From: Candidatus Sericytochromatia bacterium
GTDB lineage: Bacteria; Cyanobacteriota; Sericytochromatia; UBA7694; JACMQJ01
NCBI GenBank assembly: GCA_026004035.1
Contig: BPII01000006.1
Location: 14,296-78,295 of the forward strand
DNA: 64,000 nucleotides
Direction: 5' to 3'
Under the pieces are notes generated by a model that did not search any database, was not told the DNA's origin, and was given only the letters and a program-made list of their open reading frames with translations. A program made the position numbers and the translations under genes. Of this stretch, positions 2,603-57,533 are shown one piece after another. The first letter of the stretch is position 1, and the number at the start of each line of letters is the position of its first letter.

Positions 2603-5600
2603 CTATTGTATCATAACAGAAAAACTAACTTCACCACTACTTCCAGGAGTTAATATTCCATTTACATTCCAAATTATAAGTCCTGTTCCATTTACAGGTG
2701 GTGCTGTTATAGTTCCACTTCCTGTAACAAAACTTGCAGAAACAAAAGTGGTATTAGCCGGTGTCATATCTTGTATTTTTATATTTTTTAAATCATCATT
2801 TCCCATATTAGTATAAACTATACTATAAGTTAAAATTGTTCCCGGTGGTTGGCTTCCTGTTGGACTAACTGTTTTAATAAGTCTTAGTACTCCTGATGTT
2901 CCTGAATCTGATACAGTTGTAATATCTTGAACTATGGCAACTTTATTTTGTGTTAATAATGGATCAGATGGTGTTAAAGTTGCTGTTAGGGTTAAAGTAT
3001 CTACTGTATTTACAGGTGCATTACTTGGAATTTCTACTTTAACTATAATTCTTATGCTATGATTTGAATTCAAGTTATAAATATCACCTAATGACATACC
3101 GTTAACATTACTATAAGGAGTATCAGGTCCATCTAATATACCATTTTCATTTACATCTCTAAAGAATGTATATGTCCAACCTTGAACTGAACTGAAATTT
3201 AATGTTACATTACCGGCTAAATCACTTCTCAAGTAATGAGTATAATATATTGTGCTACCTGCTAGAGCATTACTAGAATTATTTGGTGAAAACACAAAAT
3301 TGTCTGGACCAACTATTTTTACAGAAGAAAATTCTGATGTATCATTTGTAGAATTTGTGGCTGTAGTAGTTATGTATTCACCTTCAACTATCTTTCCACC
3401 AACATTTGGAATAATACAATCAATATTTCCATTACTATCAGCATAACAATTTCCTAGATATATTTGTCCTTCACCATGTTGAACATTTTTTACCATCACC
3501 TAGTATTATTTCACCATTATTATTTCCATCATCAGTAGCTTTGAATACTTCTATAAGAGAATTTGCAAAAGCTGTTTGATTTGGTGCAGAACCAACATAA
3601 CCTTTTATATGTAATGAATCACCTACTAATATTGCTGATGTAATAATTGGGTAATCAGTTCCATTATTAGCAAGAGAAGAATTTATTATTCCATCATTTG
3701 GAGTTACTCCATCAAGATTTATTCCTAATGTATTTGGATCAGGATTATCTGACCTTAAGTCTATACCTAGATTAGCACTACCTGAAACTAACCCATTACG
3801 AAAAATACTATTTTCTGTTATACGAACTCTATTAGTAGATTGAACAACAATACCAGCTCCACCACTATCAGATATTATATTTCTATATATTTGAACAACT
3901 GAACCTGAACCTATTGTTCTAACTATGATATTTATAGGTTCATTTGAAGGATTTCCATCTAAATTTTTACCATTATTTGAATATGTATTTTCTTGAACAA
4001 CTAAATTAACAACATTTGCTGATGGATTATATCCTAATTCACTACCTGCTCCTCTCATGTGATGAACATAGTTATACTGAATAGTATCATTTAAACCATT
4101 TCCTATTATAAGAATTCCATCAAAAGTATTAGTTTGACCTGTTGAAGGTCTTGTAACTTCATTATATTCTACAAGCATATTAGAACCGCCACCATCTCTT
4201 CTTATACCAGAATTATTTGTCTTTACATAGTTATGTCTAACTATCATATTTGAGCTGTTATTTCCTAATTCAACAAAATATGTAGCAGAATAAACTGTTG
4301 ATTCTACTCCATTTGCTTGCATTCCAAATAAATTATCTTGAATTAAAGAATTATTACCTTGTATTAATACTCCACAAGCAACAAAAGCTATATTTCTTAA
4401 TTCAAATCCTGTAGCTGCTGTTGTAGTTGTAAGTCCTCTTATATTTGAAGCAACAATTTCTACTTCAGGATTATCAAATGGTGGTAAATATGTTTGTGAT
4501 ACTCCTACAAAAACATTACCTGCTGTTTGTCCAATATTTGTTTCTTGACCTCCAGCTGTTCTTACATTATTCGTTTGTGTTCTACCATCTATTATAGTAT
4601 CTGGAGCTGTTATATCAGGTAAAGCTGAAGATAATATTATTCTTGCAGCACCATAAGAAGTTAATTGATTTGTGTAAGATGTGTTTTGTCCTGGATTTGA
4701 AACTCCATTTGGTATCATAAAAATAGATACTTCTTTACCAGGTGTTTGTCCAACCTGTGCAAGTCCAGAATTACCTAAAGCATTACTATTTAGTATAAAT
4801 TGTCTTAAACTTCCTTGTCCAGAATTATTTGTATTTACAATTGTGTCAAAGTTAAATCCAAAATCTACACCTGTAATATTTGAAACTAAATATACATTTG
4901 TAATAGATTGTGCTGTTGTAGTTGATGTATTAAGAGCTGATAAAGTTGTACTACCATTTCCGGCATCTACCTTTGTAGGATCCTGACCACCTACCATATT
5001 TGTAATATCTACAACAATACCACTAGAAACATCTGTTCTAAAAGTTTGAACTCCAAGCTCACCTGAACCACCACCTGGTCTTGATGAAGTAACAGAACTA
5101 TTAACTACTCTTACAGTATAATTTCCAGGTAATAATCCACTAAAAGTATAAATCCCACTAGCATTTGTTGTTGTAAATGTAACAAAATTACCTGCACTAT
5201 TATATAACTCAACTCTTACATTAGGTCTTCCTACCCCTGAAGCACTTGTAAAATTTCTACCTGCACCACCACCATAATTTATATCTTCAAATACTCTACC
5301 TGATATAGAGTAAGTAGCATTTGATATATTTATTGTATAATCTTCAACCTCTCCATCTAAAAATGTTCCTCCAGTATCATTAGCACTTATAGAACCTGTT
5401 GTTAATCTTAATCTTACATAAGAATCACCAGCTACTATATTAGGACCACTTCCACCTATATTATTCCAAGTTAAAGTTACATTTCCATTTGTTCCATTAG
5501 GTACATTAACACTAGTAGCTTCATCAGCTTGAAATATTCCATCTCTATCAAAATCTATCCAGCCGTATAATGTTGCATTATTACCAGTGTTATTATATAC

Positions 5601-8324
5601 ATTAACATTCAGACTATATGTTGAAAAAGATGTATGTAATAATGGAAAGCTTGTAACTCCATCTTCATCATCTGTATTATCATTATCATCACCATTAGCA
5701 CTTATACCTGGTAATCCATCATTTTCAGAATCTATTAAAGAACCTATTCTAATATTATTTTTTATAGCATGACGTGCTCCTGATGAAGAATTCAATGTTA
5801 AGTATGAATTTGATGCATCTCCATAATCATAAACATTCTGTATTGTTAATGTGTAATCTTCAACTTCTCCATTATTTTTCAAGCCTGCAAAATCTGAGTT
5901 TGATAAAGAATCAGTTGTAAGTCTTACTCTTAGATAAGAATTTCCAGCTTGTATATTTGTTGGTATAGATAACCAAGTTAATGTAAATGTTCCATTATTT
6001 GTTCCATTAGGAACAGTTATTAAACTACTAGCTTCACTGCTTTGAAAAACTCCATCTAAATTAAAATCTATCCAAGCTCTTAAATTTGCGTTTGAGCCTG
6101 TGTTATTAGTTACTAAAACATTAACAGAATATGAAGAAGCATTTGTATATAAAATTGGTATAGTTGAAATTGAATCTTCATCATCACTTGTATTTGAATC
6201 ATCTCCATTTGCACTTGTATTCGGTTGTCCATTATTATCAATATCTATTAAAGCACCTAATTTAATATTATTCTTTATAATATGTCTAGCACCATTTGAT
6301 GAATTAATAGTTAAATATGTATCTGGTGCATCACCATAGTCATAAGAAGTTATAGTAATATCTTCATTATTTGTAGATGTTGCAATATAGTAACTGTTGG
6401 TTGTTTGCCCACTAGTTGTTCTTTGTGGATCAAGATATTGAGCTTGAGCTGGATTTTGAAATGTTCCTTCAAAAATTGTATTAGGAATATTCACATTAAA
6501 AGTTATTGTTACACTTCCTCCACCTGGTATTGTAAAAACTCCCCAATTTGGATTTGTAGAACCAGATGATGGATTTGTTACAGGACTTCTTGTCGCTCCA
6601 CCTGATAGATTAACTGAAGTTGTAGACAAATATGTAAATCCACTTGGTAGTAAATCAGATATATTAACTTGTTCAGCATTACCTCTATTGATAGCATTTG
6701 ATACTGTAATAGTGTATTGTCCTGTAATTCCTGAAGATGTATTTGTTAAATTTGGTGTTGATGTAGTCTTTGTAACTGTCAAATTAGGTAAGCAATCGGG
6801 ATTTGCTCCAGCACCAGGTATTGTATTTATTGGAACAGGTGTTAGTAAATCACCAACAGAAGGAGCACCTGGACCTGATGTAGGAGCACCAAAGTAATTT
6901 GAAGTATCTGTTGTTGTATATCCAGGTGATCCATTTTGTATGTTTATTGTAGCTCCAGATGAAACAGTAACATATCCACCACCACCTCCACCACCAGGTC
7001 CATGAGAATTAATAAAACCTGATTGAGTTGGCCATGAATTAGCACCATTAGCACCTCTTGCATTTATTGTTATACCTGTTAGATTATTATCAGCTGTATA
7101 AAATAAAACACTACCACCTGCACCACCACCACCTGCACCATCATTAGCAGGGTCAGGAGGAGTAGTACCATTGGCATTTATAGTTCCTGTACTACCATTT
7201 ATAGTTCCAGCTCTAATAAATACCATTCCACCACCTAAACCACCACTACTTTGAACACCTGATGAATTATTTCTTGTTCCAGCACCACCACCTCCTCCCA
7301 TTACCATTCTTGTAGGAGAAGCAGGGAAAGGAGCACCACCTAAACCACCTCTTGGCAAGTTTGAATACCAAGTATTACCACCTTGACCACCAGCACCAAA
7401 ATTAGAACCACCACCACCACCAGAATTTTGGTCATTAGCACTTGGGTTTCCATCTGTACCACCACCTCCAGCATTGCCGGGAGCACCCCTTGCAAAACTA
7501 CCACCTGGATAACCTTCTACACCAGTATTAATAATATTACTACCATCATAAACATATCTTGGAGTTCCTGCTATACCTTCACCTTTTGAAGCATGAAAAT
7601 TTCCAGAATTTCTGACATAGTCTGTATTAGAACCTCCAGGACCACCTGTTACTTGTCTAGCACCACCACCACGAAATCCTTTTCCTGTCATATCTATTGT
7701 TGCACCATTAAAATTTAGTATTCCAGCAACATCAAAAGCCAAAACTCCTCCTGTATTACCATTCCAAGCAGGAGCAGTTACTGTTCCACTTAAAGTCAAA
7801 CTAGAATATTGAGGAACTCTTATAACTTGAAATCTTTTTTGACCACTTGTAGCAGTAGCATTTGCATTTATATAAGAATTAACTAATGGTGAGGCTAAGT
7901 TTATAGTTCCACCTGCTGTTGAAACTGAATTTGTTGCTATAGCATACTCAAAAAGTCCAGCATTACCAACACTTGTTTGTCCCCTTCCTGTTCCATCATT
8001 AGCTCCATAGTTAGCATTATTTGTATAATTTATTGTTCCATCTTGCATTTGTATTATAAGTAATAAGTCTCCTGGTGATATTCCAACAGCACCTAATCTT
8101 GAAGCTCCTACAGTTACTGATGTACTACCAGCTATAGGGTTTCCTGTTCCAGGGTAGTAATCTATAAGTAATGATGATGTAGGACCAGCTACTCCATCTT
8201 TACCAGGGTTACTACAATATGAAAATACTTCTTTTGTAAGAATTATATTTACTAAAATTAATATGAAAAGTATATTAAAAACTTTAAATTTCATCAATAA
8301 TTTAACAAATAACCTCCATAACAA
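2603..8324 (-). CDS. Giant secreted surface adhesin (~1900 aa): signal peptide, parallel beta-helix repeats, Gly-rich region, two GEVED-type repeats, Cna-B/SdrD-B domain, C-terminal DUF11 domain. Split into ORFs 3471..8324 and 2603..3499 by a 1-nt frameshift in an A6/T6 run at 3487-3492
   Basis: N-terminus is MKFKVFNILFILILVNIIL (signal peptide). A ~130-aa unit YDYGDA..SYLT.NSS.GARH.IKNNI..G...GEVEDYT(L/I) occurs twice. Beta-helix-like RITENSIFRNG repeats and a long GGGGxG stretch are present. YSISGRVFEDINYGGG...GNYTVRV is Cna-B-like. The 298-aa tail carries a TIGR01451/DUF11-like motif (GTILTYSIVYTNMGNDD). With A5 instead of A6 at 3487-3492 the frames read ...ILGDGKNVQHGEGQIYLGNCY continuously. 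Confidence 0.65.
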
Positions 8325-8326
8325 AA

Positions 8327-10747
8327 TTATTGTAAATCTTTTTTAGTCAATACATTATTTTGTCCCCAGATATCACCAAAATTTCCTAATTTAAATGTTA
8401 GACCAATATAAGGGCCTTGAGCATTATAATTTGTAGTTATCAAATCTTTATCATTATAACCAAAGAAATTATATCCTAAAGCTAATCTTAAATCTTTCAT
8501 AGGAAAATATCCTATTTCAGTAATAAAATCATTTAAAGATGTTAATGTTTCAAATTGAGTTAAATTTCTATATTCTCCTACTATATCAAAATTATAAGAT
8601 AATTTATATGTTATTCTTGCAAGTCCTAAGCTAATGTTTGAATATACAGGATTAAATCCTTTTGTTATATCATAAGAATTTTTCCATGCAAGTTTTGTAT
8701 ATACTTCCCAATAATATGAAGGTTGAAAAAAGCCTTCAAATGAAAATATATTGTTTAAAACATCAGAAGAAAATTCTAATCCATCATGATTTTTTCTTAA
8801 TTGATATTTAAACAAAGCATTGAAAAAATCACTATTTAAAGGTCTATAAGCTAGCCCAAATAAAGCATCCATATTATGAGTTCTTATCAATTCACTTGAA
8901 CTGTTATACATAAATCTTCCAAATACACCAAAATCATCACCTAAAGCTCCAGCAGCATTAAAGTTAAATAAATTACTTGCTCTTAATCCATCTCTAAAAT
9001 CATATTTAGCTGAAGCTCTAAATCCTAGATTTTTAGGGAAGTATTCAGTAGAAAAAGACCAAGCATTATAACTTTCATCCATAGATATATTTAAATTTGG
9101 ATTATTACCATTTACTCTTTCAAAATTAATTCCTAATGCAAGTTCAGGAATTAGATTTATTCTATTATTAAAACCAATTCTAGTTTGTGCTGACCTACCA
9201 TCAATTGCACTATCTATTTGATATTTTGCTCCCATGTTTAGTGAATTAAAAACATCTAAACCTGTATTAAAAGTTGTATCAGCTCCAATTATTGTAGCTG
9301 TTGTTAGTTTATCTCTTTCAAAAAATGCTTGTCTTGCATATAATTTTAAATTATCTGTTAAAGCATAGTCTAAACCTAATGTTGTTTGTGTTGGTCTTGT
9401 AAAATCTTGAGTACTTAATAAATTTTGTTCTCTACTAGCATTTAAAGATATATTATAAAATGTTGGAGATTTATAATTTAAAATTGCTAAAGCTGAATTA
9501 TCTATTTGATTTATATTTTGTGGATTTGAAAATTGTCTAAATTCTAAACCACCACTTACAATATGTGAAAATATATCCTGATTGACTCTTGTATTTAATG
9601 CTTGTAGTAAATGCCCGGTAGTAAAATTCTTATCTCTATTAAATTCAATATTTAAACTTGTAGCATCAAAAGGCTTATATTCTAGTTTTCCAAAATATCT
9701 TTCTGTACCAGGTGCAAAACTATTACCTGTTTTATTAGAGAAATCTTTTTCTACAAATTGATATTCACCTTTTAAAGATAAATTATCAAGTGGTTTTGCT
9801 GAAATACCAGCTCTATATGATGAACCGTATTTATCTTCAAAAAAACTATTTGCATATTCAGCACTTATGTCAAAATTTTCACCTATTTTCTCTGTTAAGC
9901 TTACACCTGCTAATTGATAAGGTGCTGAAGGATTTAATTCTCTTATATAATTACCTCCTAAAGTTAAACCAAAACCTAGAGGTTGATTTAATTTTACTCC
10001 TACAATACTATTTGATAATTCTTGAGGATAATATTCATAAGTTATTATTATAAAATTAGGATTTAAGTTTTCATCTACACTTGCTATTGGTTGACTAAAT
10101 ATTAGAGTTCCTGTAGAATAGTCTATATTGTAATCACTTAATCTTGTTAATGTAGTAGTTTTTAATATTCTATTTATAAATGTTCTGTCTCTTGTTTCTA
10201 TTATTATTCTTTCTGTTCCATTTACAAGAGGATATTTACTTGTGTAATATGGTCCTGAAACACCTGCAGCTCTTATTTCATCTCTATTAAACATTTGTCT
10301 TGATATAGCCCCAAATACTTCTAAATCAGTTATTTGAGGTATATTTAATTTTAATCTTGCACCATTTAGAACACGATTATAATTACTCATTCTTGGTGTT
10401 GTAATATCTGCACTTACAAAACCGGTATTAAAATCACCAAACATTAAACTAGATTTATCTTTTTCTAATTTAAAAAAAACATTACTATTTGATGTTACTA
10501 TTTGATTTAATTGACTTGAATCACCATATATTGGATATAATCTATCTTCAGCTCTATCTCTGAACATGATATTTGAATCATCATTTAAAGCGTTTAATTT
10601 TCTACGAGTATCTAATGCAAAAGTTAATAAATAATCATCAAAAATAGTTCCTTGAGTAAATAATGATCCTCCTATATCAAAATTAAAACCAGCTTTAGCT
10701 TTTGGGTCGTTTTCAAATGATTGTCCGCTTAGTAAATGAATATCCAC
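8327..10747 (-). CDS. Putative outer-membrane beta-barrel protein (806-aa fragment lacking its own signal peptide)
   Basis: Tyr/Phe/Asn/Gly-rich with alternating-hydrophobic beta-strand pattern across ~800 aa. GTG start with an in-frame stop 4 codons upstream. Sits 2 nt upstream of the adhesin gene. The signal peptide probably comes from ORF 10825..11535 via frameshift(s) in 10748-10830. Confidence 0.45.
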   Translation of the reverse strand: MDIHLLSGQSFENDPKAKAGFNFDIGGSLFTQGTIFDDYLLTFALDTRRKLNALNDDSNIMFRDRAEDRLYPIYGDSSQLNQIVTSNSNVFFKLEKDKSSLMFGDFNTGFVSADITTPRMSNYNRVLNGARLKLNIPQITDLEVFGAISRQMFNRDEIRAAGVSGPYYTSKYPLVNGTERIIIETRDRTFINRILKTTTLTRLSDYNIDYSTGTLIFSQPIASVDENLNPNFIIITYEYYPQELSNSIVGVKLNQPLGFGLTLGGNYIRELNPSAPYQLAGVSLTEKIGENFDISAEYANSFFEDKYGSSYRAGISAKPLDNLSLKGEYQFVEKDFSNKTGNSFAPGTERYFGKLEYKPFDATSLNIEFNRDKNFTTGHLLQALNTRVNQDIFSHIVSGGLEFRQFSNPQNINQIDNSALAILNYKSPTFYNISLNASREQNLLSTQDFTRPTQTTLGLDYALTDNLKLYARQAFFERDKLTTATIIGADTTFNTGLDVFNSLNMGAKYQIDSAIDGRSAQTRIGFNNRINLIPELALGINFERVNGNNPNLNISMDESYNAWSFSTEYFPKNLGFRASAKYDFRDGLRASNLFNFNAAGALGDDFGVFGRFMYNSSSELIRTHNMDALFGLAYRPLNSDFFNALFKYQLRKNHDGLEFSSDVLNNIFSFEGFFQPSYYWEVYTKLAWKNSYDITKGFNPVYSNISLGLARITYKLSYNFDIVGEYRNLTQFETLTSLNDFITEIGYFPMKDLRLALGYNFFGYNDKDLITTNYNAQGPYIGLTFKLGNFGDIWGQNNVLTKKDLQ

Positions 10748-10824
10748 TTTTTGAATTAGCTAATCCTATCATTATAGGTTTTCTATAAGGAACTGTATAT
10801 TCTAATTTACCTATTTTTTTTATA

Positions 10825-11535
10825 TCATTTACAGAAACTAATATTTTTACCTTCTCCAATAGTATTTGGACTTAATATATCTACTTCTATGTAACCATTT
10901 TTTGTTTTTAATTGAATTCCATTTGTATTCGGGTCTTGATCTTCAGATTTTATAACTCCATTATCAGTATTTACGTTTATAAATATATCATCTGGAACAG
11001 GATTATTATATTTATCTAGTATTTTTATTTTCAACTTTGATATTTTTTTACCATCAGCTGGAGCTGTAAATGGTTCAATTTCTATATTATAAGGTTTTCC
11101 TCTAACATAAATAAATTTTTCTAGAGTCTCTATAACATTATTGTTTGAATCATAAATTTTTACTAATACTTTGTTTTCACCTTCTTGTAAAGGTATAGCA
11201 TAATAAGTATATACATTATTATTATTACTTGTATCAAGTTGAATTTTACCTATTAGTTTATTATCAAGAATATTATCATTCAAAATTATTTCATAAGTAT
11301 GATTAGGTGGAACAGATAATTTGAATGAAGCTGAAGGAACTTCTAATAATGGTGTAGCTTCATTACTATTTAAATCAATTTCATTTCTTGAAACAAAATT
11401 TTCTTTTTCATCTACTTTTTCTTTTGTAACTACTGTTTCACCTAAAGTTATGGATTCTTGAGCAATGGCAATAGATGGCATTATTAAAATGCCAATTAAG
11501 ATTATACTTAATATATTTCTAATAATAATTGCCAT
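10825..11535 (-). CDS. Secreted protein with signal peptide and Ig-like (Big-type) beta-sandwich region; probably the N-terminal part of the downstream beta-barrel gene
   Basis: MAIIIRNILSIILIGILIMPSIAIAQE is a signal peptide followed by V/I/N/K-rich beta-rich sequence. The third frame is open across 10748-10859 and links this ORF to the 806-aa ORF. An A8/T8 run lies at 10813-10820. Confidence 0.45.
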   Translation of the reverse strand: MAIIIRNILSIILIGILIMPSIAIAQESITLGETVVTKEKVDEKENFVSRNEIDLNSNEATPLLEVPSASFKLSVPPNHTYEIILNDNILDNKLIGKIQLDTSNNNNVYTYYAIPLQEGENKVLVKIYDSNNNVIETLEKFIYVRGKPYNIEIEPFTAPADGKKISKLKIKILDKYNNPVPDDIFINVNTDNGVIKSEDQDPNTNGIQLKTKNGYIEVDILSPNTIGEGKNISFCK

Positions 11536-11552
11536 AATACTTATATACAGTA

Positions 11553-11612
11553 TTAAAATTCAAATTCGTATGAAGTTAAACACTACTTCATGTGAATTTT
11601 TTGTGAATTTTA
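11553..11612 (-). promoter_or_regulatory. Candidate activator-dependent promoter for the 11535->2603 operon: two 11-bp direct repeats (AAAATTCACA), then TTTAAC-N17-TTTAAT
   Basis: Minus strand reads TAAAATTCACAAAAAATTCACATGAAGTAGTGTTTAACTTCATACGAATTTGAATTTTAATACTG. The same block (~80% identical, identical -35/-10 spacing) occurs at 19171-19218 upstream of the 153-aa/975-aa DUF11 operon. Confidence 0.5.
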
Positions 11613-14600
11613 ATACCGCTTTTTCATGTCAATCTTAAAATTATTATCTTTTAATTCTAAATATTCATTAGAATCAAAAATCAATTTTAAATTTTTATCT
11701 AATATTGGTTTATCAAAGTTAAATTCAAAATCACCTTTACCAATATTAAGTTTCATATCATTTAAAAACAAATTAAATTGACTATTTGAATAACCTTTTA
11801 ATTTACCTTTTAAAGTTTGTGCATTTATTAAATTAGCTATAAATTGAGCAACTTCTGCTCTTGTTGTTAATTTGTTTGGTCTAAATGTGTTATCTTCAAA
11901 AGCTACTAATAAATTATTACTATAAGCATTTAATACATGTGGTTTAGCCCAATCTGGGATTTTATCAAAATCTGAAAAAATATTATTTATGCTTCTAGTA
12001 TTACTTCCTAGTGCTTTACTAACAATAGTAGCTAGTTCGTATCTAGGAATAAAATTATCAGGTTTAAAAGTTTTATCTCTATAACCACTTACAAGATTTT
12101 CATCAACTGCTACTTTTATAAAAGGATTAGCCCAATGATTTTCTTTTACATCAATAAAATTAGCTTTACCTACTGGTCTATAGTTTTCTTTAGCTTTGAC
12201 TATTTCTAACTCTAAATCAATTTTATTATTTAAATCATCACTAATTTGAATAATATATTTACCAATTTCTAAAGGATTATTATTATCATCAAATCCATTC
12301 CAATCTAAGGAATAAAAAACCTTTTTCAAAAATTTTATTTTCATAAAAAGTTTTAACTACTTTATTATCTTTTAAAACTTTTAAAGTTATAGGTGTTTGA
12401 TTATTAACAAAAAATCTTATTGTAGTAAAAGTTTGAACATCGTAAGATTTCATAGCAACTAAAATAAGTTTTGTAGCTTCAGCTCTTGTTATATTTCTTT
12501 CTGGTTTAAAGTTACCATCCGGATAACCATGAATAATTTCTAATCCTGACTCATATTCAACGATTTTTCTTGACCAATGATCTTTAATATCTGGATATGT
12601 AATATAAGGTATTTTCTTTATGGAAATTTGATTAGGAAATAGAAATGCTAAACTTATAGGGTTTTCAGGTTTTCCTAACTTAAAGTCAATATTATCTAAT
12701 TTTACAAGTCTAAAGTTTGCCTTTCCTAATCCACTTTCAGGTATGAATACTCTTCTTATAATATCATCTTCACCAATCCAAGCTTCTTTTATTGGATTTT
12801 TAAATTTAGGTATATAATAAAGTGTTATTAATTTCTCTTTATTATCATAAATAACTTTTAAATCATTTGCTTTTTCCTTTAAGTCTAATTCATTTGTATT
12901 TAATTTTAAGCTATTATTTTCACTTTTATAAGTTTTATCATTTATATTTATTTCAAAATTTGTATTTGAAATAAACTCTAAAATTCCATCTGTAACATTT
13001 ACAAATCTATCCTTTATAATATCAATTTGTTTTTTTGTAGCTTTATCTATCTCTTTATTTTTATTTTCTATTAATTCTATTGCTTCATTTACAGGATAAA
13101 CATTTTTTAGGTAATGAATTTTTATCTATATGTAGTATAAAATCTCCTGGTGGTAAATCAGGTATAGAATATTTACCATTTTTATCTGTTAAAATTCTTA
13201 AAACCGTTTGCAGTGTATAATTCAATATTTTCTAATCCTGTGTCTTTCTCATCAGGTATTCCATTATTATTATTGTCTATAAATACTCTACCTATTATTG
13301 CACCATTATACCCGAATATATCTTTTCTAACAAAAACAATTGCTTTAGCTGGACCACCTTCAAGTTTAGTTCCATTAGGAGAAATTGCATTAACTCTTGC
13401 TTCATTTATAGATGCACCACCACTTACTCTTATACCTGTTCTAGCTTGATAAACTAAAGTAAATTTCTTTTCTGGTGGCATATCACCAAGTTTTATTTCC
13501 ATTTTTTCAATAGCTTCAAAATTATCTATTTTTTGACCATTTATGGATAATGTATTAGGTACATACTTAAAGCCTTCTGGTAATTTATCTATTACAATAC
13601 CATTTTTTAATGTATATCTAAGTTTATTTGTTACATCAACAGTATAAAACAACTGTATCACCTATATTTATAGTTTGCTTATTAACTTTTTTATTTATAT
13701 CAAAAATCTTTTTAGCTCTTAAAGGAATATTAAAAGGAATACTTTCAACATCTTTTATTACTGTTAATTGTGCTTTTTCATCAAAAATATTAAGCATATA
13801 TTTACCAATTTTTTCATCACTTGGCATAGTTCTAACTATAAATTGTCTGCTTTCATATCCATCAGCTTTTACTGTTAAACAATATTGTTTAAATGTTAAT
13901 TGTTCTTTTGATAGAAAAAATTGATAAAGACCATCTTCTTTTGTAATTATAGGGTTATTTTGAGATTGTCCTGGTGCTATATCTTCTAGTTTTACTAAAT
14001 TATTAGGATTATCACAAGAATGTATTAACCTTACTTCAGCATCTTTAACTCTTACATCTAATCCTCCTAACTCATCATAAACTATACCAAAAGGATCAAC
14101 TAATAAATCTAAATTAACTATTACATCGCCTTCCTTTACTTCAACATTTACTTTACTATAAGTAACATATCCATCAGCTTTTGTAACTTTAACATAATAA
14201 ATTCCTGGTTTTAATTCATTTCCTTGAGAGTCTTTTGAAAATTGATATAATCCGTTTGCATCAGAATTTACAGTTGCTATAACATTACCTTTCTCATCTA
14301 ATAGTTCCACAAGTGCATTAGAAACGATTTTTTTAGTTTGACTATCTACTACTTTACCTGATATTTCTATTGGTGTTTTGTTATCACCAATTTTTTGAAT
14401 ATTAACATTTTTCTGAGTTATCAAAATTCCATTTTTATCTTGATATATTATTGTGTATAATCCTTTATCTGGAAGAGAAACTTTAAATGTACCCAATTTT
14501 CCTGTTAAATAAGTAGTTACTTCTTTTCCATCTTTATCTAGCACCTTTATAATTGCTTTATCTAAAGGCAATCCTGTTTTTTTATCAATAACAGTTCCAG

Positions 14601-15659
14601 AAATAAAATATTCTAATTGTAATGTGTTAACTGTAGTGTTAGTTAAAACTTTTATTACTTTCTTATCTACTAAATCTTTTGTCAAAAAATTATCTTTATC
14701 ATCTTTATGTGGATATTCTACATAAGCTTGATTATCTATACTACCTTCTTTTGCATTATCCTTAACTTTAACTTTAAAACTTACTTGTGCTTTTACATCT
14801 TGCTCTAATTTATCCCATAGAACTTTTATGTATTTTGTATCTTTGCTAGGAAAATTATTCCAATTTACATTATCATTGGAAAATAAAATTTTACCTCCTA
14901 AGTTTGCAATAACAGGTGTATCAATTAGTAAAAAAAACATCATCTGGAAGTTTATCTATTAAAGCTAAATCCAAAGCAACCTCATCACCATTATTTTCTA
15001 ATTCAATGGTATATAAAAGAACCTCACCAACTCTAATATTACCTCTAGGATAAACACTTTTATTTGTTACTATACTAACACCTTTTTTCTTTGTATCAAA
15101 AGGTATGCTACTAGTTATGGATATCACTTTTATTTTTAAATTATCTTGTTTTATAATAGTAGGCTGTAATATAGTAATACCTGATATTTTTGGTTCTATT
15201 ATTGTATTGTCAGGTAATCCTATAATATCTTTTATAGCAACTATAAAATTAAAAGTTTGATTTGGTTGTAATTTAGGTGTTGATACTATTTTACTTTCAT
15301 CTTGTTCTATTAATCCATTATTATTTTTATCTTCATATATTTCAAAAATTGTTCCAGCTAGTAAATTTTCAACACTAAGATTATATGTTTCTTCTTTATC
15401 ACCTGTATTAGTTATTTCAGAAGGAAAAAGCCAAGTACTTAAAGGTGTTCCTTCTATGTTATTTTTTTTTGCTTTTATAATAAAATTCCTATTTATAGCA
15501 ATTATAGATGTTTCTTCAATATTTGATAAAACCTTTTGAGTTTTACCTTTATCATCAATATAAGTTCCTTCAGCTTGATTAATTATGGAAAGTGCAAAGG
15601 AATTTTTTTTGAAAAATAAAATTACTATAAATAAGAATAATTGAAATATTTTTTTTCAT
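11610..15659 (-). CDS. Large SLH-domain cell-surface protein (~1340 aa): signal peptide, DUF11, multiple Cna-B/SdrD-B-like domains, two C-terminal SLH domains. Broken into at least 5 frames (ORFs 14921..15127, 13636..14943, 13182..13661, a start-less frame ~12290..13120, 11610..12344)
   Basis: The ATG at 15659 is followed directly by an A8 run (plus strand T8 at 15649-15656). With A7 the product begins MKKIFQLFLFIVILFFKKNSFALS (signal peptide) and reads through into the 15127 ORF. That ORF contains EVLLYTIELENNGDEVALDLALIDKLPDD (DUF11-like). The 435-aa and 159-aa ORFs carry Cna-B-like repeats (GKVVDSQTKKIVSNALVELLDEKGNVIATVNSDANGLYQF; GRVFIDNNNNGIPDEKDTGLENIELY). The open frame 12290-13120 encodes IHGYPDGNFKPERNITRAEATKLIL (SLH) and the 244-aa ORF encodes GYRDKTFKPDNFIPRYELATIVSKAL (SLH). 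Frame junctions coincide with A/T runs (for example A8 at 14930-14937). Confidence 0.6.
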
Positions 15660-15668
15660 AATTTTTCA

Positions 15669-15693
15669 AAAAAAAAGGCTCTTACGAGCCTTG
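15669..15693 (-). terminator. Rho-independent terminator of the 975-aa gene
   Basis: Minus strand reads AAGGCTCGTAAGAGCCTTTTTTTTTG: a 7-bp GC-containing stem, 4-nt loop and T9 tail, 9 nt after the stop at 15702. Confidence 0.7.
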
Positions 15694-15701
15694 ATTTAAT
15701 A

Positions 15702-18629
15702 TTAATTAATTTGCACCCTAAATCTTACTTCTCCTCTTTCAGCTGGATTTACTGTTCCTCCAGTTGTTGCTGTGTTAGCACCTCCAACATAAAATCTAAC
15801 TTGATTTGTTAAGAATTCACCTGCATCATCACCACTAGCGTCTGTAACAGCAGCACCATTAAATACTCCTCCATTATCAGTTATATCAGGATCATATTGT
15901 AATGAACCTGAAACATATGTTGTATTTGCTGGTATTAAGTCTGTAATAACACAATTTAGAGCGTCAGCACTACCTATATTTTCATATTGTATTCTATATT
16001 CTAAAATATCACCTGGTTTTCCTGTTGTTCCAGGATCATTATTAGTTCCTGAAGGTCCTTTATTTACAACAGATTTTGTTAATGATATGAAGCCAGATAC
16101 AACTGTTGTAGTATCAGTATTAGTTTGTGTATTAGAACCAACTTGTCCTGTAACTACTGTGCTGTCAACAGTTCCTGAAGGAGTTCCAGAAGGTATAATA
16201 ACCTTTATTTTGAAATTAAATGAAGCACCAGGTGCTAATGGTGTTGTTGTAGTTATTATATTATTTGATGTATCCATTACTTGATAAGTAAACCCATTAG
16301 TTCCAGCACTTGCACTTAAATTATATGTTTCAGTTGTATTACCTGTATTTGTTAATGTATGGTCGTAGAATAATACACCACCAGCAGGAGCAGAGCCACT
16401 CCTATTTGCTACTAATGTAAATGTTCGGAAAGCAGGTACTATTAAAGTATCGGATACAGTATCAAACTTAGTATTATCATTTGTAGATGTAGAAGTAATA
16501 TTAACTGGATATGAATTTGGTGCTACTCCAGAAGGAACATTTACAACAGCCACAAAATTAGCTGAAGCACCAGCATTTATAACACCTGTATCACTAACAT
16601 TTAGATTTCCTCTTTCTAAAACAGTAGCACCAGCTGCAACAGAAGCAAATAAAGATTGACCAGCAGCAAATGTTACTGTATTACCAGCTACACTTCCTAC
16701 TGTTAAAGTTTGACCATTAATAATTATATTATCTCCAGCTGTAAATCCAGTAGCATTAGTTAAATCAACTGATGTTGCACCTGCTGATGCAGCACTAGCT
16801 AATGTTGTTGTTGTAAGAACAGGATAGAATAAAATTGTTGCACCAGAGATTGTAGTAGATGAGGTTAGATTAAATGTATCAGGACTACCTCCTTTATTTT
16901 GTATTTGTATAGGATAAGAAACTGTTGTTCCATTTGCACTAGCTGTAAGTGATACAGGTGTATCATCATCATTTGTGCTTGCACTTCCATTTATTATATT
17001 TTCTAAATTAACATCAGGTACAATAACACTAGTTAATCTATTTCTTGTTGTATCACTTAATGTTTGTCCTGGATTTGTTCCAATAGCTGTTCCACCATTT
17101 GTAGATGTTGCTCTAACAACTGCATTGAAAGGACCACCACTTGCATTAGTAGGAACAAAAACTCTTGTTACAAATGTAAATTCTCCTTCATCTACAGCAG
17201 GAGTATTTGGATCATCTCTCAAAATATTTCCTGTATCTGGGATACTATCACCGTTTGTGTCGAGTAATGGATTTACGTTATTAGCTCCAACACTTGGATC
17301 TGTTAATTGGAAGAAAGAAACAGTTGATCCAGCAGGGAATGTATTACTATCTACTGTAATATTAAATAAATCAGTTGCATTACCTTTGTTCTTAACTACA
17401 TTTTTGAAATATAAATATGTTCCTGCTGGAGTGCTTGCTTGAACAGTTGCATCTGTTGTAGCTGCATCTGTACCTGTTGTTGTTTGAGCACCAAATGGAG
17501 TACTTGAGAATGTTAATAGTACAGCTGATTTTCTATTAATTTGAGAATTTACTGTATTTGTTGTTCCTGTTATTTTTGGTGTATTAATATCATTATCATC
17601 ATAACTAAAATTAGCACTATTTGGAACTACTACATTAGGAGCAGTTGCTTCTACTCTAACTTTAAAACTTACCACTCTTGTATTAGCTGGAGCCAAAGAA
17701 GGTAATTGCCATCTAACATGTGTTACATTTGCATCTGTTGTTCCTGTAGGAGTATAAGTATAAGTTGTACCACCATCATTTGAGAAAGAAAATGTTCCAA
17801 CACCACTTTGAGAAGCAACAATAAAATCTGTATTTGCTGGTATTTGATCTATAAACTCAACATTGTTAGCTGTTTGGTTACCAGTATTTGTAATTGTAAA
17901 TGTATATGTTAAATCACCATTTGGATCAACATTAGCTAAGTCAACTGTTTTAGATACTGATATAACAGCATCATTTACAACTGTTGTTTTATTATAATTA
18001 TTTGTATCAGTTACAGTATTATTACCTACTGAAGTACCTTGTAAATCTACTGTTATAACATTACCACTGCTAGCACTTGATGGAACTTGATATTTTACTA
18101 TTAACTTAACTTGAGTATCAGCTGGAACATTATTGACAGAACCTCCATTTGGTATTAAAGTATCTCCAACATCTACTATACCATTTCCATTAACATCTAA
18201 ATATACTTCTTTACTACTATTTACTCCTGTAACCAAGCTTGGTGTTGTTGTTGAACCTACTACAGAACTTATTGTGAAAGAATCTGTAGCATTACCATTA
18301 TTTGTTAATGTATATGGATAATATACAATACCACCTGGTGTAGCATTTTGTTGTTGTCCTGGTGATGCTTCAGTTCCATTTGGGGTTATAGTAAAACCAT
18401 AAACAGCAGTTACAGTAGTTGTAACAAGATTAGATGTAGAAGTATAAGAATTATTTTGTGAGTCCTCGTAAGTCGCTGTAGCTTGGTTACCTATAACAGT
18501 TCCTGCTGGAGTTCCAACAGCCTTGGCTTCCTTTTGAACTCCAACTAAAGAAAATGGTGTAACGAGTAGTAAAGCTGTTAATAATGAGGTTAGCTTACTA
18601 CTTTCTTTTTTGAGTTTAATTTTACTCAT
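15702..18629 (-). CDS. DUF11 (TIGR01451 conserved-repeat) cell-surface protein, 975 aa, Thr/Asn/Gly-rich; possible S-layer or outer-layer component
   Basis: Signal peptide MSKIKLKKESSKLTSLLTALLLVTPFSLVG. Repeated ~100-aa beta-rich units with motifs such as YTFTITNTGNQTANNVEF and YNLSASAGTNGFTY. Strong SD AAGGAGAG 7 nt before the ATG. Confidence 0.6.
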   Translation of the reverse strand: MSKIKLKKESSKLTSLLTALLLVTPFSLVGVQKEAKAVGTPAGTVIGNQATATYEDSQNNSYTSTSNLVTTTVTAVYGFTITPNGTEASPGQQQNATPGGIVYYPYTLTNNGNATDSFTISSVVGSTTTPSLVTGVNSSKEVYLDVNGNGIVDVGDTLIPNGGSVNNVPADTQVKLIVKYQVPSSASSGNVITVDLQGTSVGNNTVTDTNNYNKTTVVNDAVISVSKTVDLANVDPNGDLTYTFTITNTGNQTANNVEFIDQIPANTDFIVASQSGVGTFSFSNDGGTTYTYTPTGTTDANVTHVRWQLPSLAPANTRVVSFKVRVEATAPNVVVPNSANFSYDDNDINTPKITGTTNTVNSQINRKSAVLLTFSSTPFGAQTTTGTDAATTDATVQASTPAGTYLYFKNVVKNKGNATDLFNITVDSNTFPAGSTVSFFQLTDPSVGANNVNPLLDTNGDSIPDTGNILRDDPNTPAVDEGEFTFVTRVFVPTNASGGPFNAVVRATSTNGGTAIGTNPGQTLSDTTRNRLTSVIVPDVNLENIINGSASTNDDDTPVSLTASANGTTVSYPIQIQNKGGSPDTFNLTSSTTISGATILFYPVLTTTTLASAASAGATSVDLTNATGFTAGDNIIINGQTLTVGSVAGNTVTFAAGQSLFASVAAGATVLERGNLNVSDTGVINAGASANFVAVVNVPSGVAPNSYPVNITSTSTNDNTKFDTVSDTLIVPAFRTFTLVANRSGSAPAGGVLFYDHTLTNTGNTTETYNLSASAGTNGFTYQVMDTSNNIITTTTPLAPGASFNFKIKVIIPSGTPSGTVDSTVVTGQVGSNTQTNTDTTTVVSGFISLTKSVVNKGPSGTNNDPGTTGKPGDILEYRIQYENIGSADALNCVITDLIPANTTYVSGSLQYDPDITDNGGVFNGAAVTDASGDDAGEFLTNQVRFYVGGANTATTGGTVNPAERGEVRFRVQIN

Positions 18630-18657
18630 TTTATACTCTCCTTATAAATAAAAATTA

Positions 18658-19113
18658 CTATTTTAACTTAACTTTATAACTTATAACCAAAGTTTGATTT
18701 GGTTTTAAAGGTTTATCTATAAGCCATTTTATTTTTTTATACATATCAGGTGTTGCTGGTTTTAAAACTTCTTTATTTCCTTCTCTTACTTTTATTTTTG
18801 GTTCTTTATCAAAAGTTTTACCATCTAGGCTAAATAAAGCTTCATATAAATATTTTTCTTTAATATATGTTGTTCCTTCTGGTATATTTCCTACCGGTTG
18901 TAATTTTCTAGCTTCAGAATCACCAACATTTGTCAAAACAATTCTATATACAAGAGTATCACCAGGCTGAGCTTTATCAGCAGATTCGTAAATTTCTTTA
19001 TTATCTTTCAAAATTATCTTTTGATTTTCTAGCTTTACCTTTACATCAGGCTTAGAATAAGCTGGTAAAGAAAAAGTAAAACTTATTAAAAATAAACTTA
19101 CTAATCTCTTCAT
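18658..19113 (-). CDS. Small secreted single-domain DUF11-like protein (~151 aa), first gene of the operon with the 975-aa protein
   Basis: MKRLVSLFLISFTFSLPAYS is a signal peptide. DTLVYRIVLTNVGDSEARKL is a DUF11-type motif. The ORF track start at 19119 is a TTG; ATG at 19113 is more likely. Confidence 0.5.
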   Translation of the reverse strand: MKRLVSLFLISFTFSLPAYSKPDVKVKLENQKIILKDNKEIYESADKAQPGDTLVYRIVLTNVGDSEARKLQPVGNIPEGTTYIKEKYLYEALFSLDGKTFDKEPKIKVREGNKEVLKPATPDMYKKIKWLIDKPLKPNQTLVISYKVKLK

Positions 19114-19170
19114 AATCAAACAAAAATAATAATAACTAATATGTTATTTTAATACTATTAAATAACAAAT

Positions 19171-19218
19171 TTGTATGAAGTTAAACACTATTTACGTGAA
19201 GATTTTGTGAAGATTTTA
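19171..19218 (-). promoter_or_regulatory. Second copy of the direct-repeat + TTTAAC-N17-TTTAAT promoter block, upstream of the 153-aa/975-aa operon
   Basis: Minus strand reads ATTAAAATCTTCACAAAATCTTCACGTAAATAGTGTTTAACTTCATACAAATTTGTTATTTAAT. It carries a tandem 11-bp repeat AAAATCTTCAC and matches the 11553-11612 block. Confidence 0.5.
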
Positions 19219-19641
19219 ATTTTTAATGATATTTTGAATATTAATTAAAATATTTTTAATATCTTTTTCTGTAGTTTTTACATAAGAATATTTAAAGTAA
19301 TCTATACTTTTTAAAGTATTAATTAAATAATCATTATTAATTATAGTAGATATTTCTTCTGTTGTTAAGTATTTGCAATCAATATTCTCTTTATATTTTA
19401 TATATTCCTTTAAAATTAAAGATAGTTCATCTAACAATTTATCTGTAGAATTATTTAAATTTAAACTATTAATTTTTTTTTCTAGAATTTGCTTATAATT
19501 CAAACTATTATTTCTTGATGATAAAAATTTTCTCATTAAGAAGAATATTAATAATAAAATTAGCAATACTAAAATTAAGTAAAAAATATTATTTTGATAT
19601 ATTATTTTTATCGGATCATATATATCATGTATATCATTCAT
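19216..19641 (-). CDS. Hypothetical membrane protein (one N-terminal TM helix)
   Basis: ORF; its start overlaps the upstream gene stop (ATGA at 19638-19641). Confidence 0.4.
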   Translation of the reverse strand: MNDIHDIYDPIKIIYQNNIFYLILVLLILLLIFFLMRKFLSSRNNSLNYKQILEKKINSLNLNNSTDKLLDELSLILKEYIKYKENIDCKYLTTEEISTIINNDYLINTLKSIDYFKYSYVKTTEKDIKNILINIQNIIKN

Positions 19642-20510
19642 TTAATAGATACTAATTCAGTATAAAGAACTTTTACAGTTGCTTCTCTAAGATTTATTGT
19701 TTTTATACCAAAATTTTCAAATACACGCTTACTTTTTAAAGATTTTACATTTTTTAAATCCAGTTTTTCTTTGTATAATTTAGTGCTAGTTGCATCTCCA
19801 TTTATACCATGCAGTTCTAATTTAGAAAGTTTATCTACTTTATCCAAATTATTTTCAACAATAATAGTAGCTTTTTCTTTTTCTTTAAACTTAAGTGCTA
19901 ACTCAGTTACACAAATTAAGCCAATTAAAGCACTTAGAAATAAACTTGAGAAAATATTATTTAAAATAGTAGATAAAGATTGATTTTCTCCTAAAGTTAT
20001 ATAGTTAAATATACTTGCAACAGCAATAACACCAACAGCATAAACTAATATTGTTTCACTTTCTAGATGATCAGTAGCTAAAACAAGAGAAGAGTATAAA
20101 AGTGCTATTTTAAAATCAATTCCTAACAATGAGTAAGTTACATAAGTTAATCCTACAATAGTTATTAAAACATTTAAAGTAATAAGGTTTATTATTGATG
20201 AAAAATTTTTTCTTAAGTTATTCAAATTTATCAGCAAATAACCTTCAAAAACAATAATAGCAACACAAATTAATATTACTTTTATTCCATTTTTGTCAAA
20301 TACATCAGGATTTATAAGATTTAATCCATATTTACCTAAAATAATTTCAAAAAACATAAAAAATATTATTGAAGGAAAATTTGTTTTATTTGATAATAAA
20401 TGACCTAAGATACCTACTAATAAAATTGATACTAATGTTATTATTATTATTATTATTAGTAAAGAAAGATAATGATGTAAATATTCACCTAAGTTAAATA
20501 TATCATTCAT
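19638..20510 (-). CDS. Hypothetical polytopic membrane protein (possible cation/proton-antiporter-like fragment)
   Basis: About 7 hydrophobic helices. LLVGILGHLLSNK resembles CPA-family N-termini. Its start overlaps the aconitase stop at 20510. Confidence 0.35.
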   Translation of the reverse strand: MNDIFNLGEYLHHYLSLLIIIIIITLVSILLVGILGHLLSNKTNFPSIIFFMFFEIILGKYGLNLINPDVFDKNGIKVILICVAIIVFEGYLLINLNNLRKNFSSIINLITLNVLITIVGLTYVTYSLLGIDFKIALLYSSLVLATDHLESETILVYAVGVIAVASIFNYITLGENQSLSTILNNIFSSLFLSALIGLICVTELALKFKEKEKATIIVENNLDKVDKLSKLELHGINGDATSTKLYKEKLDLKNVKSLKSKRVFENFGIKTINLREATVKVLYTELVSIK

Positions 20511-26541: not shown

Positions 26542-27369
26542 CTACCAATTTTTAAATAAATTAGGTAATAAAATTTCTTGCTTGTTTTTAATAAGCATTT
26601 TTTGTTTATATAAGTAATCTTTATTTGTAAAATTGATTATTTCTATTAAATCATCCTTAAATTTATTTATAAAATTGTTAAATGTATCTTTTTGAAATTT
26701 TGGTTCAATTATGAAGTCATAAGAAAATAGAATGTTATTTTTAATCCAATTCAAGTATGACATAGTTCCAAACCTGTATATATTCATGTATAAGTACATA
26801 GATACTTTAGAAGTCTTTTTTCTTACAAAATTATAATTAGGTATATATATCAATTGACCTTCATTTAAAGTTGATGAGAAAACTGAATTTTCAAAAGTTT
26901 GCAAACCTAGTTTATTATTAGATGGCTTATCAAATATTTCCCAATAAGAATCTCCATATACTTGTATTACCAAAGAATCAAATATTTCTCTATGAATTTC
27001 TTTACCATGATTTTGTCCGTTTTCCACTTCTAGATCCATTTCAATATAACTATTCATTAAATTTGATAGTTCAAAACATAAATCTAGTAATTCTTTATCT
27101 AAAAAATTTATTTTTTTTATAGTCAAATTTGAGTTTTGATTTAATATTTCTATAAACAATGGATGATTTAATACTTCATTTTCTATATTTTTAACCATTC
27201 CTTTATAGTATGTAACAATATTATTTTTATCTAATTCTGAATTATTAATTATTTCATTAAATTTATTCCAATTAATTAAATTAATAATATCTTCATAATT
27301 TACTTTAATTATAAATGGTTTATTTTCATTTATATTTTGTATTAGTTGTTGAATATCAAATACTTTCAT
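26542..27369 (-). CDS. Cupin_4/JmjC-like protein, third paralogue, probably degenerate; last gene of the giant-protein operon
   Basis: EIHREIFDSLVIQVYGDSYWEI and GQLIYIPNYNFVRK align with the HxD and second-His segments of the 407-aa paralogue. H-R-E is kept but Arg replaces the distal His. Confidence 0.4.
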   Translation of the reverse strand: MKVFDIQQLIQNINENKPFIIKVNYEDIINLINWNKFNEIINNSELDKNNIVTYYKGMVKNIENEVLNHPLFIEILNQNSNLTIKKINFLDKELLDLCFELSNLMNSYIEMDLEVENGQNHGKEIHREIFDSLVIQVYGDSYWEIFDKPSNNKLGLQTFENSVFSSTLNEGQLIYIPNYNFVRKKTSKVSMYLYMNIYRFGTMSYLNWIKNNILFSYDFIIEPKFQKDTFNNFINKFKDDLIEIINFTNKDYLYKQKMLIKNKQEILLPNLFKNW

Positions 27370-57080: not shown

Positions 57081-57533
57081 TTGCTTTTAATGATAGAGAA
57101 TGTAAATTTGGAAGATATACAAAAATTAAGTAAGTTAGTTGATAGTATAGGAGCTTGGTTATATAAAACTGAAATAGATGAAATAAAGAAAAGTAATATT
57201 TCAGAGCTTACTTATAGTGAATTACATACTTTAAAAGCTATCGAAGAAATTGAAAATGCAAAGCTTTATGAAATAGCTGATAAATTAGGTGTTTCAAGTG
57301 CTTCTATGTCTGTTACAATAGATAATTTAGAAAAAAAGTCTTTTGTTATAAGAGATAAAGACAAAAATGATAGAAGAGCTATAATAATAAGACTTACAGA
57401 AAAAGGTATTAATGCAAATAGAGAACATGAGAAATTACATTGTAAAATGGCTGAAGCTATATTAAGTAAATTAGATAAGGATCAACAAAAAATAATAGTT
57501 AAAGCTTTTGAAAAGCTACTTTCTAATGAATAA
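57081..57533 (+). CDS. MarR-family transcriptional regulator
   Basis: Winged-helix region ELTYSELHTLKAIEEIENAKLYEIADKLGVSSASMSVTIDNLEKKSFV. Confidence 0.7.
   Translation: MLLMIENVNLEDIQKLSKLVDSIGAWLYKTEIDEIKKSNISELTYSELHTLKAIEEIENAKLYEIADKLGVSSASMSVTIDNLEKKSFVIRDKDKNDRRAIIIRLTEKGINANREHEKLHCKMAEAILSKLDKDQQKIIVKAFEKLLSNE

Follow-up and report, generated by a model that had tools for sequence, protein, structure and literature searches.

We describe here two promoter-like blocks of about 60 nt, named copy A and copy B, from the minus strand of a 64-kb stretch of a Candidatus Sericytochromatia genome (the window, ~25% GC). Sericytochromatia are an uncultured, non-photosynthetic sister lineage of photosynthetic cyanobacteria. 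Copy B stands in front of a gene for a small secreted protein and copy A in front of a barrel-protein gene. Both blocks carry head-to-tail (A/T)TCAC units every 11 nt, and these repeats, their phasing and their strand specificity are conserved at both positions in six genomes. It is quite probable that the blocks are activator-dependent promoters of the kind used by response regulators of the OmpR/PhoB family. The original prediction, made from the letters of the window, had pointed to such promoters, and it gains support from phased TCAC units upstream of both orthologous genes in five related genomes, together with the published geometry of PHO-box-type promoters. In the literature we found no work on promoters of Sericytochromatia. 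The kind of element is well known and its mechanism is a textbook one; what is new is this instance and the small regulon inferred from it in Sericytochromatia.

Two blocks with one layout

Copy A (TAAAATTCACAAAAAATTCACATGAAGTAGTGTTTAACTTCATACGAATTTGAATTTTAATA, minus strand, 11612-11551) and copy B (AAAATCTTCACAAAATCTTCACGTAAATAGTGTTTAACTTCATACAAATTTGTTATTTAAT, minus strand, 19217-19157) align with 50 identities in 63 positions (79%) and two 1-nt gaps, very near the earlier estimate of about 80%. The local alignment score of the pair is 38, compared with 20 for the best unrelated 80-nt tile of the window. The conserved core proposed earlier is present as an exact 18-mer, TAGTGTTTAACTTCATAC, which occurs in the window exactly twice, at 11568-11585(-) and 19173-19190(-); the chance expectation for this word with up to three mismatches is 0.21 matches. 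The tandem 11-bp direct repeats take the form TTCAC-N6-TTCAC (11-nt period) in both copies, a pattern confined to these two sites in 64 kb, and the identically spaced TTTAAC-N17-TTTAAT was found in both copies as well (coordinates in Table 1). All statements of the original prediction about the sequence itself were checked and were correct. The looser pattern TCAC-N7-TCAY is not enriched on its own in the window (2 found, 2.5 expected), and the case for more than chance is built on the shared block and on conservation in other genomes.

For copy A transcription is predicted to start near 11545, which would leave a leader of at most ~10 nt before the ATG at 11535. Other -10 candidates of this copy are TACTGT (11552-11547) and TATATA (11547-11542), the latter predicting a leaderless mRNA. 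The nearly leaderless transcript foreseen earlier is thus retained as a prediction for the window, though a leader this short is shared by only one relative, L008, the others having ~50 nt. Shine-Dalgarno sequences are indeed absent at both starts, as had been claimed, but this is not distinctive, as roughly two in three genes of the window have none. A scan of the window with the sigma-70 consensus returned 56 sites (63 expected) and missed the proposed hexamers; at 25% GC such a scan is uninformative.

Conservation in related genomes

The best homologues of the 806-aa barrel open reading frame (ORF) of the window are annotated as Candidatus Sericytochromatia or Cyanobacteriota. By identity of the barrel protein the five species-level relatives used here are L008 (89%) and L009/L010, L011, L012 and L015 (56-57%). 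In these relatives both the small gene and the barrel gene are preceded by (A/T)TCAC units on the sense strand. Within the 150 nt before start codons, TCAC was counted 30 times in 11 target regions (1650 nt) and once in the regions before other cluster genes (2250 nt; Fisher p = 1e-10), whereas the reverse word GTGA shows no difference (3 and 5, respectively). Of the 33 spacings between successive TCAC words, 17 measure exactly 11 nt and another five 21 or 22 nt. We regard this cross-species conservation as the decisive evidence for the blocks being more than a chance likeness.

The same counts bear on a factor-free explanation, in which phased A-tracts form curved DNA or a UP-like element that boosts a constitutive strong promoter for abundant surface proteins. 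Between the TCAC cores there are indeed runs of A4-A6 with an 11-nt recurrence, conservation extends to the A-rich linker, and the region, at ~-40 to -65, is the usual location of UP elements. The most conserved and strand-specific positions are, however, those of the non-A core TCAC (30 versus 1), and this core recurs in phase inside the spacer region, which is unexpected for curvature elements. Moreover, TCAC stays constant where the linker between units changes (AAAAAA, AAAATC, TAAAAC, GTAAAA), the core (A/T)TCAC(A) being invariant or nearly so. We consider this explanation unlikely.

Alignment of the orthologous promoters, anchored on the proximal unit, revealed a common plan. Barrel promoters have two distal units and small-gene promoters have two to four, 11 nt apart in both; these are followed by a single degenerate slot which holds TTTAWC, by an in-phase proximal TTCAC or TTCAT (in some promoters TTAAC, TTTAC or TTTAT) and by a -10-like T(T/A)NNAT exactly 17 nt after TTTAWC. 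In the 11 orthologous promoters this last element keeps its position at +17 to +22 from the proximal unit. In L008, L009, L011, L012 and L015 the first distal unit of copy A is found at an unchanged offset as (A/T)TCAC, and the TTTAAC of this copy is conserved as TTTAWC in the orthologous promoters, with TTTACC and TTTTAC in two relatives. The proximal unit, overlooked in the original prediction, is an in-phase third unit inside the conserved core: TTCAT in the window, it reads TTCAC, with no change of offset, in the counterparts of copy A in L009, L011, L012 and L015. In these same four relatives the -10 candidate of copy B reads TTAAAT, again at the same offset.

Counted from the last distal unit, the proximal unit follows after 22 nt in every barrel promoter and after 21 nt in each of the five small-gene promoters. 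Since the spacing is specific to each class, the difference of 1 nt between copies A and B is a conserved feature and not an assembly error. The ORF upstream of copy B is not conserved in the relatives while the motif is, which associates the motif with the downstream gene.

The variants found in relatives also speak to the idea that the core is a promoter of an alternative sigma factor of the extracytoplasmic function (ECF) type, with GTTTAAC as the -35 element. ECF promoters have AAC in the -35 element and a CGT/TC-type -10 at fixed spacing, and ECF factors often control envelope genes. The core does contain AAC and a conserved spacer-like stretch, loosely resembling an ECF -35. Nevertheless, AAC is replaced by ATC, ACC or TAC in L009, L011 and L015, a conserved CGT-type -10 is lacking, and the phased repeats upstream would stay unexplained, so that we give this idea very little credence. 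Readings of the core as a sporulation-sigma (CATACA-type -10), sigma-54 or Bacteroidetes-type promoter were dropped, the relevant bases not being conserved in the relatives.

The 25-nt cores of copy A (11561-11585) and copy B (19166-19190) differ at one position (24/25 alike), and ~6 core positions separate copy A from its orthologue in L008 (4450-4475), the 89%-identical relative. Such a pattern points to gene conversion or concerted evolution of the two promoters within this lineage. One might go further and regard the blocks as a mere remnant of duplication or gene conversion between neighbouring intergenic regions, devoid of regulatory meaning. The close likeness of the two window cores, greater than that of copy A to its L008 orthologue, does speak for some homogenisation. 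The remnant idea is contradicted by the arrays kept at both positions in relatives of only 56-57% protein identity, where the surrounding intergenic sequence has diverged and both promoters of one genome are otherwise unlike, and we find it hardly credible.

A third TTCAC-N6-TTCAC array is present in L011 (~1660-1730, minus strand), followed by TTATCTTGCC in the same promoter layout. It precedes a divergent gene (475-1626(-)) of a 383-aa lipoprotein which matches no Pfam family and is without a homologue in the window. This gene is a possible extra member of the regulon in that genome.

Wider scans were of little help. A search of 185,579 species genomes, a set that does not include the source genome, with the 18-mer gave 7 unrelated single matches in other phyla, which we put down to chance, and a metagenome scan with a 23-mer core gave no matches. 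The degenerate pattern TCAC-N7-TCAC-N10/11-TTTAWCTTCA returned, among the matches listed, at least 107 unique ones in metagenomes, nearly all inside coding regions of unrelated taxa, and was discarded as a means of defining the regulon; 6 of the listed matches are intergenic with a downstream ORF, and 2 of these precede VTC-domain genes on Firmicute-like contigs. In these two unrelated contigs (L065 1332-1405 and L023 67-227) the form TCAC-N7-TCAC-N11-TTTAWCTTCA stands directly upstream of the VTC-domain (polyphosphate-related) gene. Their arrays are compatible with PhoP-type PHO boxes in those organisms; a literature search for a link between VTC genes and PhoP found nothing.

The proposed activator and its likeness to PHO-box systems

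In the model that we favour, each block would be a sigma-70-type promoter with a poor -35 (TTTAAC), probably activated by a winged-helix response regulator of the OmpR/PhoB family. The regulator would bind head-to-tail to 11-nt units composed of the (A/T)TCAC(A) core and an A/T-rich linker. These units would fill helically phased slots, with an upstream pair at ~-62 to -47 and a downstream pair formed by the degenerate slot with TTTAAC and by the in-phase TTCAT or TTCAC at ~-29 to -25. The downstream pair would overlap the -35 region and end ~11 nt before the -10 hexamer, and cooperative tandem dimers would bring in RNA polymerase, substituting for a proper -35 contact as happens in PHO-box promoters. 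A single regulator may in this way co-control two transcription units of the conserved Sericytochromatia envelope cluster. Copy B would drive the genes of the small and the 975-aa CLIPPER proteins, up to the terminator at 15692-15675, and copy A would be an internal promoter, directly after the gene of a protein with surface-layer homology (SLH) domains, for the barrel and the giant adhesin-like proteins.

Published PHO boxes consist of 11-nt direct repeat units with seven conserved and four less conserved positions, the E. coli core being CTGTCAT and that of S. coelicolor GTTCACC (PMC4415409); in E. coli, 10 bp separate the boxes from the -10 hexamer downstream of them (PMC1906773). In both copies of the window and across the 11 orthologous promoters the units run head-to-tail at about one helical turn, on the sense strand only, and each 11-nt unit combines a conserved core with a less conserved A/T-rich linker, as PHO boxes do (PMC4415409). 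The proximal TTCAY is in phase and ~11 nt before the predicted -10, and TTTAWC agrees with TTGACA at three of six positions, but the partner slot is degenerate. The likeness to E. coli PhoB and S. coelicolor PhoP promoters extends to the division of the unit into seven conserved and four A/T-rich or less conserved positions and, with the -10 as predicted, may extend to boxes which replace the -35 and end ~10 bp before the -10 (PMC4415409, PMC1906773). The S. coelicolor core GTTCACC shares TTCAC with the units found here. On the other hand, the E. coli core is CTGTCAT, and the Streptomyces linkers are GC-rich.

For B. subtilis PhoP, the part of PMC11870197 which cites Eder 1999 gives a unit TT(A/T/C)ACA with 11-bp periodicity. 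That formula includes TTCACA, the distal unit here, and the distal TTCACA-N5-TTCACA is a literal instance of the pattern quoted there. The PhoP promoters of B. subtilis likewise have four 11-bp-phased slots on the coding strand, reaching the -35/spacer region, and a poor -35. The proximal units across our promoters are TTCATA, TTCACN, TTAACT and TTTACA. Differences are that the third slot is degenerate here, that the targets are surface proteins and not phosphate-scavenging genes, and that the host is a cyanobacterial relative; the resemblance is one of promoter sequence alone.

The regulator SphR of cyanobacteria, a related phylum, uses tandem 8-bp CTTAACCT units, at least three in number, joined by 3-bp linkers (PMC1906773). 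Its 11-nt period and its three or more tandem units are matched by the small-gene promoters of L009, L011, L012 and L015, which have three or four tandem units, and agreement with the SphR unit is also seen in the L009 proximal unit (CTTAACTT) and in the TTTAACTT word (PMC1906773). In contrast, the distal units here are TTCAC and not TTAAC, one core position off CTTAACCT, and the TTTAAC word is 5-6 nt out of phase with the TCAC units. The mechanistic model adopted above comes from cryo-electron microscopy of M. tuberculosis PhoP, where tandem head-to-tail dimers occupy 1-3 PHO boxes and the downstream pair overlaps the -35 and displaces the contact of sigma region 4 (PMC11825685). It is a structural model from an actinobacterium, while the system described here is known from sequence only.

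RpaB of photosynthetic cyanobacteria is an OmpR-family regulator whose HLR1 site has two 8-nt units separated by a 2-nt gap (10-nt period) with the core (G/T)TTACA. There too, direct repeats of a TTACA-like core are bound by a member of this family; the sites here differ in their 11-nt period and TTCAC core.

The TCAC arrays might also be operators for a repressor or for a regulator of another family, and not OmpR/PhoB activation sites. No regulator gene lies close to the cluster, the proximal unit sits in the spacer/-35 region, where repressors bind too, and in L008 and L015 this unit is palindromic (TTCAYGTGA) and readable on both strands. The palindromic extension is, however, absent in L009, L011, L012 and copy B. 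Sites of the LytTR type are 9-bp repeats with a 21-bp period, and those of the CRP type are inverted TGTGA-N6-TCACA; both misfit the arrays in orientation or period. Head-to-tail 11-nt units made of a core and an A/T linker, in 2-4 copies and with a poor -35, are a hallmark of the OmpR/PhoB family (PMC4415409, PMC11870197). We judge such operators rather improbable.

Several observations weigh against activation by an OmpR/PhoB-type regulator. The third 11-nt slot is degenerate in most promoters, which makes the four-site picture incomplete, and the phased A-tracts between units could act through DNA curvature alone. The -10 candidates of the window (TTTAAT) have T at position 2 instead of the usual A, and two other -10 frames are possible. 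Neither the window nor the 10-kb flanks of the related loci contain a response-regulator gene, the sole regulator gene seen being that of a MarR protein at 57081-57533 of the window. Arrays are missing in L013, L014, L137 and L138 (50-53% and 39% identity), in which almost no spacer precedes the barrel gene, and L016 (61% identity) has a different arrangement; the absence from distant relatives makes the element specific to one clade. Finally, the binding of a regulator, the OmpR/PhoB-type identity of the activator and the positions of the transcription starts are predictions.

Within the OmpR/PhoB family the leading single candidate is an orthologue of PhoB/SphR, because the unit sequence falls within the PHO-box family; other members of the family use similar cores, and we hold the assignment as a tentative lead. 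The arrays might be PHO boxes of Sericytochromatia, through which PhoB/SphR would switch on the envelope cluster, or the sites of a dedicated envelope regulator of one clade; the former is possible, if doubtful. No pst or pho genes were seen in the 64-kb window or in the fetched loci. If the arrays are PHO boxes, phosphate starvation would remodel the cell surface of these non-photosynthetic relatives of cyanobacteria, and the TTCAC unit would define a Sericytochromatia Pho regulon linking phosphate status to envelope remodelling.

The value of the results lies mainly in annotation and in an entry point, and not in surprise. They provide a concrete cis-element with cross-species support, composed of (A/T)TCAC units with an 11-nt period, TTTAWC and a -10-like hexamer, which ties together two transcription units of a conserved, uncharacterised envelope cluster. 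The element can be used as a position weight matrix for defining the regulon in complete genomes and as bait for the regulator.

The envelope cluster and its transcripts

Both blocks are located inside one conserved envelope cluster, which recurs in ten fetched contigs. Its genes encode, in this order, a small CLIPPER/DUF11 (~155 aa), CLIPPER (~1000-1100 aa), SLH-anchored (~1300-1400 aa) and barrel protein (~1100-1250 aa), and a fifth gene, for a large CLIPPER protein, is present in many contigs. CLIPPER is the new name of PF01345 (DUF11), an isopeptide-bond domain (PMC12617251). The cluster, seen at 2603-19113 of the window and in loci L009, L011-L015 and L137, joins CLIPPER/DUF11 proteins to a multidomain SLH-anchored one and to the barrel protein, whose N-terminal domain is Big_1/invasin-like and whose C-terminal part is a porin-like barrel. 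It is apparently an uncharacterised envelope or surface-fibre system of Sericytochromatia. Two surface-protein operons under a common regulon had been proposed; the motif is shared by both, yet the supposed operons belong together, as two transcription units of a single conserved cluster of five genes.

Table 1. Promoter parts and genes of the envelope cluster in the window (all on the minus strand; promoter elements and leaders are predicted)
Feature	Position	Sequence or product	Remark
Copy A, distal unit 1	11602..11611	AAAATTCACA	TTCAC at 11607-11603; begins within stop codon of SLH gene (11612-11610)
Copy A, distal unit 2	11591..11601	AAAAATTCACA	TTCAC at 11596-11592; 11 nt after unit 1
Copy A, candidate weak -35	11575..11580	TTTAAC	3/6 matches to TTGACA; in degenerate third 11-nt slot
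Copy A, proximal in-phase unit	11570..11574	TTCAT	22 nt after unit 2
Copy A, candidate -10	11552..11557	TTTAAT	17 nt after TTTAAC
Copy B, distal unit 1	19207..19211	TTCAC within AAAATCTTCAC	5 nt past stop codon of upstream ORF (19218-19216)
Copy B, distal unit 2	19196..19200	TTCAC	11 nt after unit 1
Copy B, TTTAAC and proximal unit	19175..19185	TTTAAC (19185-19180), TTCAT (19179-19175)	TTCAT 21 nt after unit 2
Copy B, candidate -10	19157..19162	TTTAAT	17 nt after TTTAAC; predicted leader ~37 nt to ATG at 19113
Small CLIPPER/DUF11 gene	18658..19113	Secreted protein, ~151 aa	First gene under copy B; Pfam DUF11
CLIPPER/DUF11 gene	15702..18629	Surface protein, 975 aa	Second gene of copy B unit
Terminator-like hairpin	15675..15692	GC-rich hairpin and T9 run	Intrinsic-terminator-like; directly after 975-aa gene; ends copy B unit
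SLH gene	11610..15659	Large SLH-anchored surface protein	~1350 aa in relatives; six frame segments in window
Barrel gene	8327..11535	Barrel protein	Under copy A; 236-aa and 806-aa ORFs
Giant gene	2603..8324	GEVED/SdrD_B/CLIPPER surface protein	Final gene downstream of copy A; ORFs of 1617 aa and 298 aa

Orthologues of the small protein (154-156 aa) stand at the head of the cluster in L009, L011, L012, L014, L015 and L137. A hairpin with a T run matching the one after the 975-aa gene is present at the same place in L008, L009, L011, L012 and L015. The SLH gene begins only ~8 nt past the T9 run, a layout common to the same five relatives. The hairpin is suggested to be a partial terminator which sets how strongly the first two genes are expressed relative to the rest of the cluster.

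Several genes of the cluster are split in the window. The 236-aa ORF starting at 11535 (Big_1-like, with a signal peptide), formerly regarded as the first gene after copy A, proved to be the N-terminal piece of a barrel protein of ~1070 aa split by frameshifts, with the porin-like barrel in the 806-aa ORF. The frames of tblastn matches, together with the orthologues being single proteins of 1072-1251 aa, make the two ORFs one gene with two shifts, near 10849 and 10750-10700. In the SLH gene (Pfam domains SLH, CarboxypepD_reg and DUF11) tblastn with the L008 orthologue covers 15655-11613 in alternating frames, the frame changing five times between 14934 and 12295. A single shift, near 3490, interrupts the giant gene. 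Because every frame break in 2603-15659 (-) falls at an A or T homopolymer run, indel errors of a long-read assembly are the likely cause, real pseudogenes being less likely.

The inverted repeat ATGAAGT-N8-ACTTCAT noted earlier in copy A is present there as part of a longer interrupted palindrome (11554-11612) with three arm pairs, TAAAATTCA/TGAATTTTA, AATTC/GAATT and ATGAAGT/ACTTCAT. It belongs to the lineage of the window and L008 and not to the general design of the promoters. The RNA of 11612-11536 folds with -16.9 kcal/mol (z = -3.9), and the L008 orthologue (4412-4480) retains a 13-bp arm by means of different bases (z = -2.1); neither copy B (z = -0.8) nor L009 (z = 0.0) has a comparable fold. 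An Rfam search of 10700-19700 on both strands gave no match at E <= 1.

Copy A could accordingly be asked to act mainly at the RNA level, its hairpin after the SLH stop codon terminating or stabilising the SLH transcript. The folds of copy A and L008 and the start of the block at the stop codon fit such a role. The stem is, however, A/T-rich and not followed by a clean U tract, in contrast to the GC-rich terminator at 15692-15675, and there is no such fold in copy B or L009 and no Rfam match; the conserved direct repeats would be left unexplained. We find a mainly RNA-level role very unlikely. In this lineage the palindrome might give the SLH transcript an additional RNA hairpin at its 3' end, and a hairpin of this sort could coexist with promoter function as a secondary feature.

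Two further ORFs outside the cluster look truncated. That of a Na+/H+ exchanger (19216-20510; 290 aa) matches only positions 3-117 of the 375 of its profile, and that of AcrB (233-2428; 731 aa) matches positions 330-1020 of 1021; they may represent further frameshifts of the same kind. Elsewhere in the window there are two adjacent genes for JmjC-domain proteins in a stretch of 19% GC (26542-28579), a gene for a 1265-aa restriction-modification fusion protein of the Eco57I/MmeI type (37887-41684) and one for a 1085-aa protein composed nearly entirely of WD40 repeats (46894-50151).

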